Source: a phage. From it: a stretch of DNA of 64,000 nt. The stretch's first letter is position 1; each line of letters starts with the position of its first letter. Positions 60,243 through 60,698 of this stretch are shown here, piece by piece. Under the pieces are notes generated by a model. The model saw nothing but the letters and a program-made list of their open reading frames with translations, did not search any database and had not been told where the DNA came from. The DNA lies in the sequence record PZ295659.1; one strand, 5' to 3'. The position numbers were made by a program, and so were the translations under genes.

Positions 60243-60698
60243 TTATTTTAGATCTTCGGCCCAATCTAGTTTTAAGGGTTCTTTGTATTCACGGTCGAGA
60301 ATAACCGGAATAGCTACATCACCACTGAATGATAGTTGGCCAACGTTATATGATAACGTTATATGTGGAGTGTAGTCGTCGAAATCATGAGTAGCACCTA
60401 AAGCTCGTGCATACTGATGACGACATCTAAGATATTCGGAATCAAGAACTAAAACCAGTACAGCGCCGTCGTCAGTTTTCCATACCTCAAAGTGTCCTGA
60501 TTCGGCAACAGAATAACTACCACTAGATGTAGTATATGGTATGTTTACACGTGAATAACAAATTGTTGAATGAAGCTTTTCACGTGGTACTGGATTAGGA
60601 ATTCTTAATTTGCGCTGGAGGTCTTCCAGCGCATCAAGTGTTAATTCCGAAAATTTAGCTGCGACGTAGAGGCCTTGTGAAAAGTCCTCAAATTTCAT
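60243..60698 (-). CDS. 57B: 2H phosphoesterase (gene 57B; Acb1-type cyclic-oligonucleotide phosphodiesterase)
   Basis: 151 aa with two H-x-T/S-x motifs (LHSTICYS and PHITLSYN); syntenic with T4 57B. Confidence 0.75.

Follow-up and report, generated by a model that had tools for sequence, protein, structure and literature searches.

The gene at positions 60243..60698 (minus strand) of the DNA analysed here is almost certainly the Mosigvirus (RB69-type) orthologue of T4 gene 57B, and its sequence predicts a phosphodiesterase acting on the cyclic nucleotides of CBASS. The DNA is a 64,000-nt stretch of phage record PZ295659.1, which we call the window; positions count from its first letter. The product of T4 57B is the anti-CBASS nuclease Acb1 (Hobbs et al. 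2022, PMC9117128), in agreement with the initial annotation. That annotation had also placed an open reading frame at exactly these coordinates, and the frame indeed runs uninterrupted from an ATG at 60698 to a stop codon at 60243, with 151 codons and the stop. It had further described the product as an Acb1-type candidate. The Acb1 type was borne out, but the gene is not a new candidate: the identity and role of T4-type Acb1 are already published, and the window gene is orthologous to one whose protein has been characterised. Its product is identical to RB69 57B (NP_861847.1) at 150 of 151 positions (99%), and translated copies with 100% identity were found by tblastn in other GenBank coliphages, including E. 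coli O157 typing phage 6 and phage LF82-41. Homologues of acb1 were detected by tblastn in 1470 phage records.

The 151-aa protein matched the Pfam model Acb1 (PF23474) with an E-value of 1.3e-58 and a score of 197.3 bits (curated cut-off 27). The match, from residue 8 to residue 149, spanned profile positions 1-144 of 144, i.e. the full profile. Among all PDB chains, the best match was Acb1 in entries 7T26 and 7T27 (E-value 1.1e-58), with 88 of the 140 aligned positions identical (63%). As Hobbs et al. state under data availability (PMC9117128), 7T26 is the apo form of Acb1 from Erwinia phage FBB1 and 7T27 the same protein with 3'3'-cGAMP. The FBB1 protein has the HxT/HxT motifs, the aromatic residues and the lid in common with the window protein, although it is a more distant orthologue from a phage of another host genus. 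Homology to the solved structure 7T26 indicates that the acb1 product has the compact 2H phosphoesterase fold. A single-sequence AlphaFold model of the product was too poor for use (pLDDT 39.4, pTM 0.29), so that the Acb1 fold is assigned from the similarity in sequence to the crystallised protein. Searching NCBIfam returned no match for Acb1, IPI or 57A.

The closest characterised relative is T4 57B (NP_049750.1), to which the window protein aligns without gaps, with 129 of 151 residues identical (85%) and 22 substitutions. Both genes occupy the same slot between 57A and ipI. The window protein has one residue fewer than T4 Acb1 at its N-terminus, hence a shift of 1 in the numbering of equivalent positions. 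The two also differ in that the window belongs to a Mosigvirus genome and T4 is a Tequatrovirus, and in that the activity of the window protein is a prediction.

The initial annotation had drawn attention to the two H-x-T/S motifs of 2H phosphoesterases. A regular-expression scan for H-x-[TS] in the acb1 product gave exactly two matches, H43-S-T45 and H112-I-T114. With five histidines in the protein, two such motifs could occur by chance; they are meaningful because of the homology (Pfam, PDB and the alignment of the catalytic tetrad) and not because of their number. Residues H43, T45, H112 and T114 line up with the HxT/HxT catalytic tetrad of T4 and FBB1 Acb1. In the T4 enzyme, the active-site tetrad consists of H44, T46, H113 and T115, the bases of the ligand are stacked by Y12, W74, F107 and W147, E141 makes an adenine-specific (N6) contact, and residues 145-152 form a C-terminal lid (PMC9117128). 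The equivalents of the stacking residues (Y11, W73, F106 and W146) and of the adenine contact (E140) are all found in the window protein, and all nine named functional residues of T4 Acb1 are unchanged. The lid corresponds approximately to residues 144-151; the C-terminus reads LDWAEDLK instead of LDWADDLK in T4, a single conservative change.

An alignment of eight sequences combined window Acb1 and T4 Acb1 with six diverged homologues from the Straboviridae (Acinetobacter phage Acj9, Aeromonas phage 50AhydR13PP, Cronobacter phage S13, Vibrio phage Va3, Klebsiella phage KP15 and Vibrio phage phiKT1024), whose identity to the window protein goes from 47% down to 27%. The invariant columns include Y11, H43, T45, H112, T114 and E140. 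As judged from these comparisons, every defining feature of the Acb1 family that can be tested on a sequence is present in the window protein. A pseudogene or inactive copy was considered as well and was ruled out, as the reading frame is intact and every functional residue is present.

The T4 enzyme cleaves its substrates 3' of adenosine in a metal-independent reaction that proceeds via a cyclic phosphate, and it is inactivated by the H44A/H113A mutation (PMC9117128). Deletion of acb1 makes T4 more sensitive to CBASS, and nine further Acb1 homologues are active besides that of T4 (PMC9117128). In an independent later transposon screen, 57B/acb1 was conditionally required on a CBASS host. We found no Acb1 of RB69 or of Mosigvirus among the proteins named in the available text and supplements of that study (PMC9117128).

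We propose that the window gene specifies a small metal-independent 2H phosphodiesterase that would bind CBASS cyclic di- and trinucleotides containing at least one adenosine (3'3'-cGAMP, cUA, cAAA). The bases of the ligand would be stacked between the conserved aromatic residues, with the C-terminal lid closing over it, and the HxT/HxT tetrad would cut on the 3' side of adenosine, with a 2',3'-cyclic phosphate as the intermediate. Once linearised, the CBASS signal would never activate the effectors, and abortive infection would be avoided. The chemistry, the substrate range and the protection in vivo come from the T4 and FBB1 proteins; the RB69-type allele very probably behaves in the same way, because its identity to T4 Acb1 is 85% and all named residues are unchanged. 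Given the 22 substitutions, its quantitative specificity could differ from that of the T4 enzyme.

The acb1 family bears the name 'RNA ligase' in PHROG 755 and in RefSeq, which raises the question of whether the protein could be a LigT-like 2'-5' RNA ligase or a 2',3'-cyclic phosphodiesterase whose substrates are RNA ends, as in tRNA repair for instance, with anti-CBASS activity as a secondary property. The 2H fold is common to RNA ligase-type enzymes and Acb1, acb1 is followed about 2 kb downstream by genes for tRNA-Arg and tRNA-Met, and the protein does give a weak match to the Pfam model 2_5_RNA_ligase2 (PF13563, E-value 0.013). However, this match is below threshold (15.9 bits for a cut-off of 27) and is confined to residues 70-131, whereas the Acb1 model is matched with 197 bits over its full length, and on these grounds we rejected the 'RNA ligase' identity. 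The name itself is an automatic annotation at the level of the fold. LigT-type 2H phosphoesterases (PF13563) and other viral 2H cGAMP phosphodiesterases resemble the window protein in their two HxT/S motifs and in their 2H chemistry via a cyclic phosphate. According to a commentary (PMC12064943), poxviruses and phages share cGAMP phosphodiesterases. Unlike the LigT-type enzymes, the window protein has the Acb1-specific stacking residues and lid, and it has kept the residues for holding a cyclic dinucleotide, namely the stacking aromatics, E140 and the C-terminal lid. For T4 57B, moreover, both the cleavage of cyclic oligonucleotides and the CBASS phenotype have been directly demonstrated (PMC9117128). 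A primary role on RNA ends is accordingly a very improbable reading.

The protein could also be a member of the Acb1 family whose substrate range or role has shifted relative to T4, either because it would act mainly on cA3, against type III CRISPR or other cA3 systems, or because it would serve as the trigger of a Panoptes-type guard. The 22 substitutions relative to T4 Acb1 would leave room for such a shift. Acb1 degrades cA3, and type II Panoptes restricts Tevenvirinae phages with an intact acb1, which escape by mutation of acb1 (PMC13577387). However, the nine named functional residues include none that differs from T4 and nothing in the sequence suggests a shift, deletion of acb1 from T4 left type I Panoptes defence unaffected, and a role of this kind would add to the function of Acb1 without replacing it. 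We therefore give this possibility hardly any credence and retain the assignment as an Acb1 orthologue that would act on CBASS signals.

The initial annotation had assigned the gene to the T4 57B locus, and the gene order agrees with this. Gene 1 (60933..61667, minus strand), upstream of 57A, encodes a dNMP kinase of 244 aa (Pfam DNMK PF21448, E-value 6.5e-97), and 57A (60698..60928, minus strand) encodes the tail-fibre chaperone of 76 aa (Pfam GP57 PF17594, E-value 6.5e-26). The complete order on the minus strand is gene 1, 57A, 57B, ipI, trna.4, trna.3, trna.2, RB69ORF151c, tRNA-Met and tRNA-Arg. The T4 order from gene 1 to trna.2 is thus reproduced in the window, and the synteny of gene 1, 57A, 57B and ipI is common to the window, T4, PhAPEC2 and RB69, with RB69 57B having the same flanking genes as window acb1. 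At the acb1 locus, the window is 98% identical in DNA sequence to PhAPEC2 and NHEP10. Over 25 kb, its identity to phiC120, PhAPEC2 and RB69 is 95-97%, with 93-95% coverage. By these comparisons, the window is a segment of a Mosigvirus genome (RB69/PhAPEC2-like).

At the gathering threshold, two tRNAs were the sole Rfam matches in the whole window, and this search revealed no structured RNA tied to the acb1 locus. The two tRNAs (58197..58353, minus strand) are Arg-UCU and Met-CAU, and RB69 has the same two. The PhAPEC2 record (positions 4339..4572 of our sequence L002) annotates three tRNAs (Arg, 'Asx' and Met), which lie on the opposite strand when the sequences are put in a shared orientation; this placement is probably an annotation slip. 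The trna.3 homologue (59244..59567, minus strand), which matches PHROG 1411, could not be aligned to RB69 by megablast, with flanks that are 95% identical. By this measure, it is locally much more diverged than the neighbouring genes.

Matches to promoter consensus sequences suggest how acb1 may be expressed. No early promoter of the GTTTAC type was found between acb1 and the end of the window, and one lies directly downstream of acb1, ahead of ipI. At the junction of 57A and acb1 (...GAAGAATAATGAAATTT), the stop codon of 57A overlaps the start codon of acb1 (TAATG), which suggests that acb1 is translationally coupled to 57A. The octamer TATAAATA, which is the T4 late-promoter consensus, occurs inside gene 1, upstream of 57A and acb1 (61283..61290, minus strand), and represents a candidate late promoter for these two genes. 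It is kept at the orthologous site in T4 (positions 5006..5013 of our sequence L001) and in RB69, with flanking codons that diverge. As the octamer was found 5 times in the whole window against 8.1 expected, a count not above chance, a function for it in gene 1 is argued from the conservation of this one site. A candidate middle-type promoter is located upstream of gene 1 (61696..61720, minus strand; CGCTTCT, 12 nt, TATAAT); an alignment with T4 and RB69 revealed that T4 has at the same place a canonical MotA-box-like sequence (TGCTTCA, 11 nt, TATAAT). From these consensus matches, we infer that acb1 may be co-transcribed with gene 1 and 57A, starting at middle or late promoters instead of a dedicated early promoter. 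Expression at these stages would agree with the onset of Acb1 activity at about 15 min that has been reported for T4 (PMC9117128).

The strict early-promoter pattern GTTTACW-N17-TAYWRT was present at 11 sites in the window, from 2481 to 60229 and all on the minus strand, for 0.07 expected. The window would therefore correspond to an early-gene region transcribed leftward.

Downstream of acb1, ipI (59878..60165, minus strand) encodes a precursor of 95 aa. The initial annotation had mentioned an adjacent injected-protein-like gene, and this neighbour can be specified as IPI. The product matched the Pfam model IPI_T4 (PF11634) with an E-value of 1.3e-50, residues 20-95 covering profile positions 1-76 of 76. 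It is 89% identical to T4 IPI over all 95 residues, the 10 substitutions falling mostly in the leader. The 76-residue NMR structure of 'Internal protein I' (PDB 2JUB) aligned end to end with residues 20-95 (E-value 5.7e-42), the mature part thus starting at residue 20. The first 19 residues, MKTFKEFISPVANVSTLTE (MKTFKEFI...STLTE), form the leader, which we take to be a capsid-targeting sequence removed on head maturation. The T4 prohead protease cleaves after (L/I)xE, and the ipI product has a processing site of this form between LTE and the following A, which gives a mature IPI* of 76 aa.

In the literature on T4, IPI is an injected inhibitor of the type IV restriction enzyme GmrS/GmrD (cited in PMC9117128). 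By homology, the neighbour of acb1 is a true IPI, and inhibition of GmrS/GmrD is the function predicted for it: ipI would encode a protein that is encapsidated and injected, with removal of the leader leading to inhibition of the restriction enzyme. In T4, the position of acb1 next to ipI has been described as consistent with an anti-defence island (PMC9117128), so that the small counter-defence neighbourhood proposed in the initial annotation holds for the window but restates an idea already expressed for T4.

On both sides of ipI, we found an early promoter combined with a stem-loop. Between acb1 and ipI (60194..60229, minus strand), the promoter GTTTACA-N17-TACTAT overlaps a stem-loop of 12 bp; the motif folds at -17.8 kcal/mol (z -3.3), and its promoter hexamers are conserved in T4 and PhAPEC2. 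The second motif, between ipI and trna.4 (59835..59874, minus strand), consists of GTTTACA-N17-TATAGT and likewise a 12-bp stem-loop. It folds at -17.7 kcal/mol (z -4.7) and can be aligned to the copy between acb1 and ipI. The GTTTACA-N17-TAnnnT promoter parts extend over 60200..60229 (ahead of ipI) and 59845..59874 (ahead of trna.4). A copy of 52 bp, 92% identical to the motif at 59835..59874, occurs elsewhere in RB69 (positions 1616..1667 of our sequence L009).

This arrangement corresponds to that of PeSL (promoter-early stem-loop) elements, which unite promoter and stem-loop in an intergenic gap beside a variable gene and for which the T4/PST consensus is TTTACW-N17-TAYWAT (PMC4122927). 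The upstream motif (TTTACA-N17-TACTAT) fits the consensus and the downstream motif (TTTACA-N17-TATAGT) departs from it once. The motifs flanking ipI fit the PeSL cassettes of T4-type phages as putative promoters with stem-loops, and ipI, with such a motif on either side, would be a cassette transcribed from its own promoter. A rule-based scan detected no intrinsic terminator in the gaps between acb1 and ipI or between ipI and trna.4. As a T-run is absent from the stem-loops of both motifs, the label of terminator for them is taken solely from the PeSL literature.

In RB69 (compared over 20730..21075 of sequence L009), 57B and ipI are separated by one more ip gene, RB69ORF156 (108 aa), which is absent from the window. 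The megablast alignment is interrupted here, and its pieces on the two sides share 27 nt at window positions 60143..60169, where the ip ORFs have their first (leader) codons in common. This overlap suggests that the difference is an indel produced by recombination between short shared leader repeats. The slot downstream of acb1 belongs to a type of variable cassette site that is already known. One could go further and suppose that this PeSL-bounded slot is actively exchanging, with the T4-type IPI gained or kept and the second ip gene of RB69 lost in this Mosigvirus lineage, and that the substrate profile of the RB69-type Acb1 may also differ from that of T4; we regard this extended reading as unlikely. 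If true, an exchanging cassette slot or an altered Acb1 substrate profile would refine what is known only to a modest extent.

Elsewhere in the window, an orthologue of acb2/vs.4 (45231..45494, minus strand) encodes a protein of 88 aa with 98.9% identity to RB69 vs.4 and a match to the Pfam model Acb2_Tad1_hairpin (E-value 9.6e-18). The vs.4 product of T4 and RB69 is Acb2, an anti-CBASS sponge for cyclic nucleotides. By homology, both known T4-type anti-CBASS proteins, acb1 and acb2/vs.4, are encoded in the window. The internal-protein leader MKTY(Q/K/S)EF also opens three further ORFs (47095..47424, 47466..48044 and 48846..49127, all on the minus strand), which lie around denV and beside the lysozyme gene e. 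The one of 192 aa falls in a stretch (47425..48015) that was not aligned to RB69 by megablast.

The main value of these results lies in annotation. Many GenBank and RefSeq records, as well as PHROGs, name this gene 'RNA ligase' or 'hypothetical protein', and the label supported here is anti-CBASS phosphodiesterase Acb1. The combination of acb1, acb2/vs.4 and an injected anti-restriction protein predicts that the phage would resist many CBASS systems. A Mosigvirus that carries acb1 may, in turn, be sensitive to guard systems of the Panoptes type.
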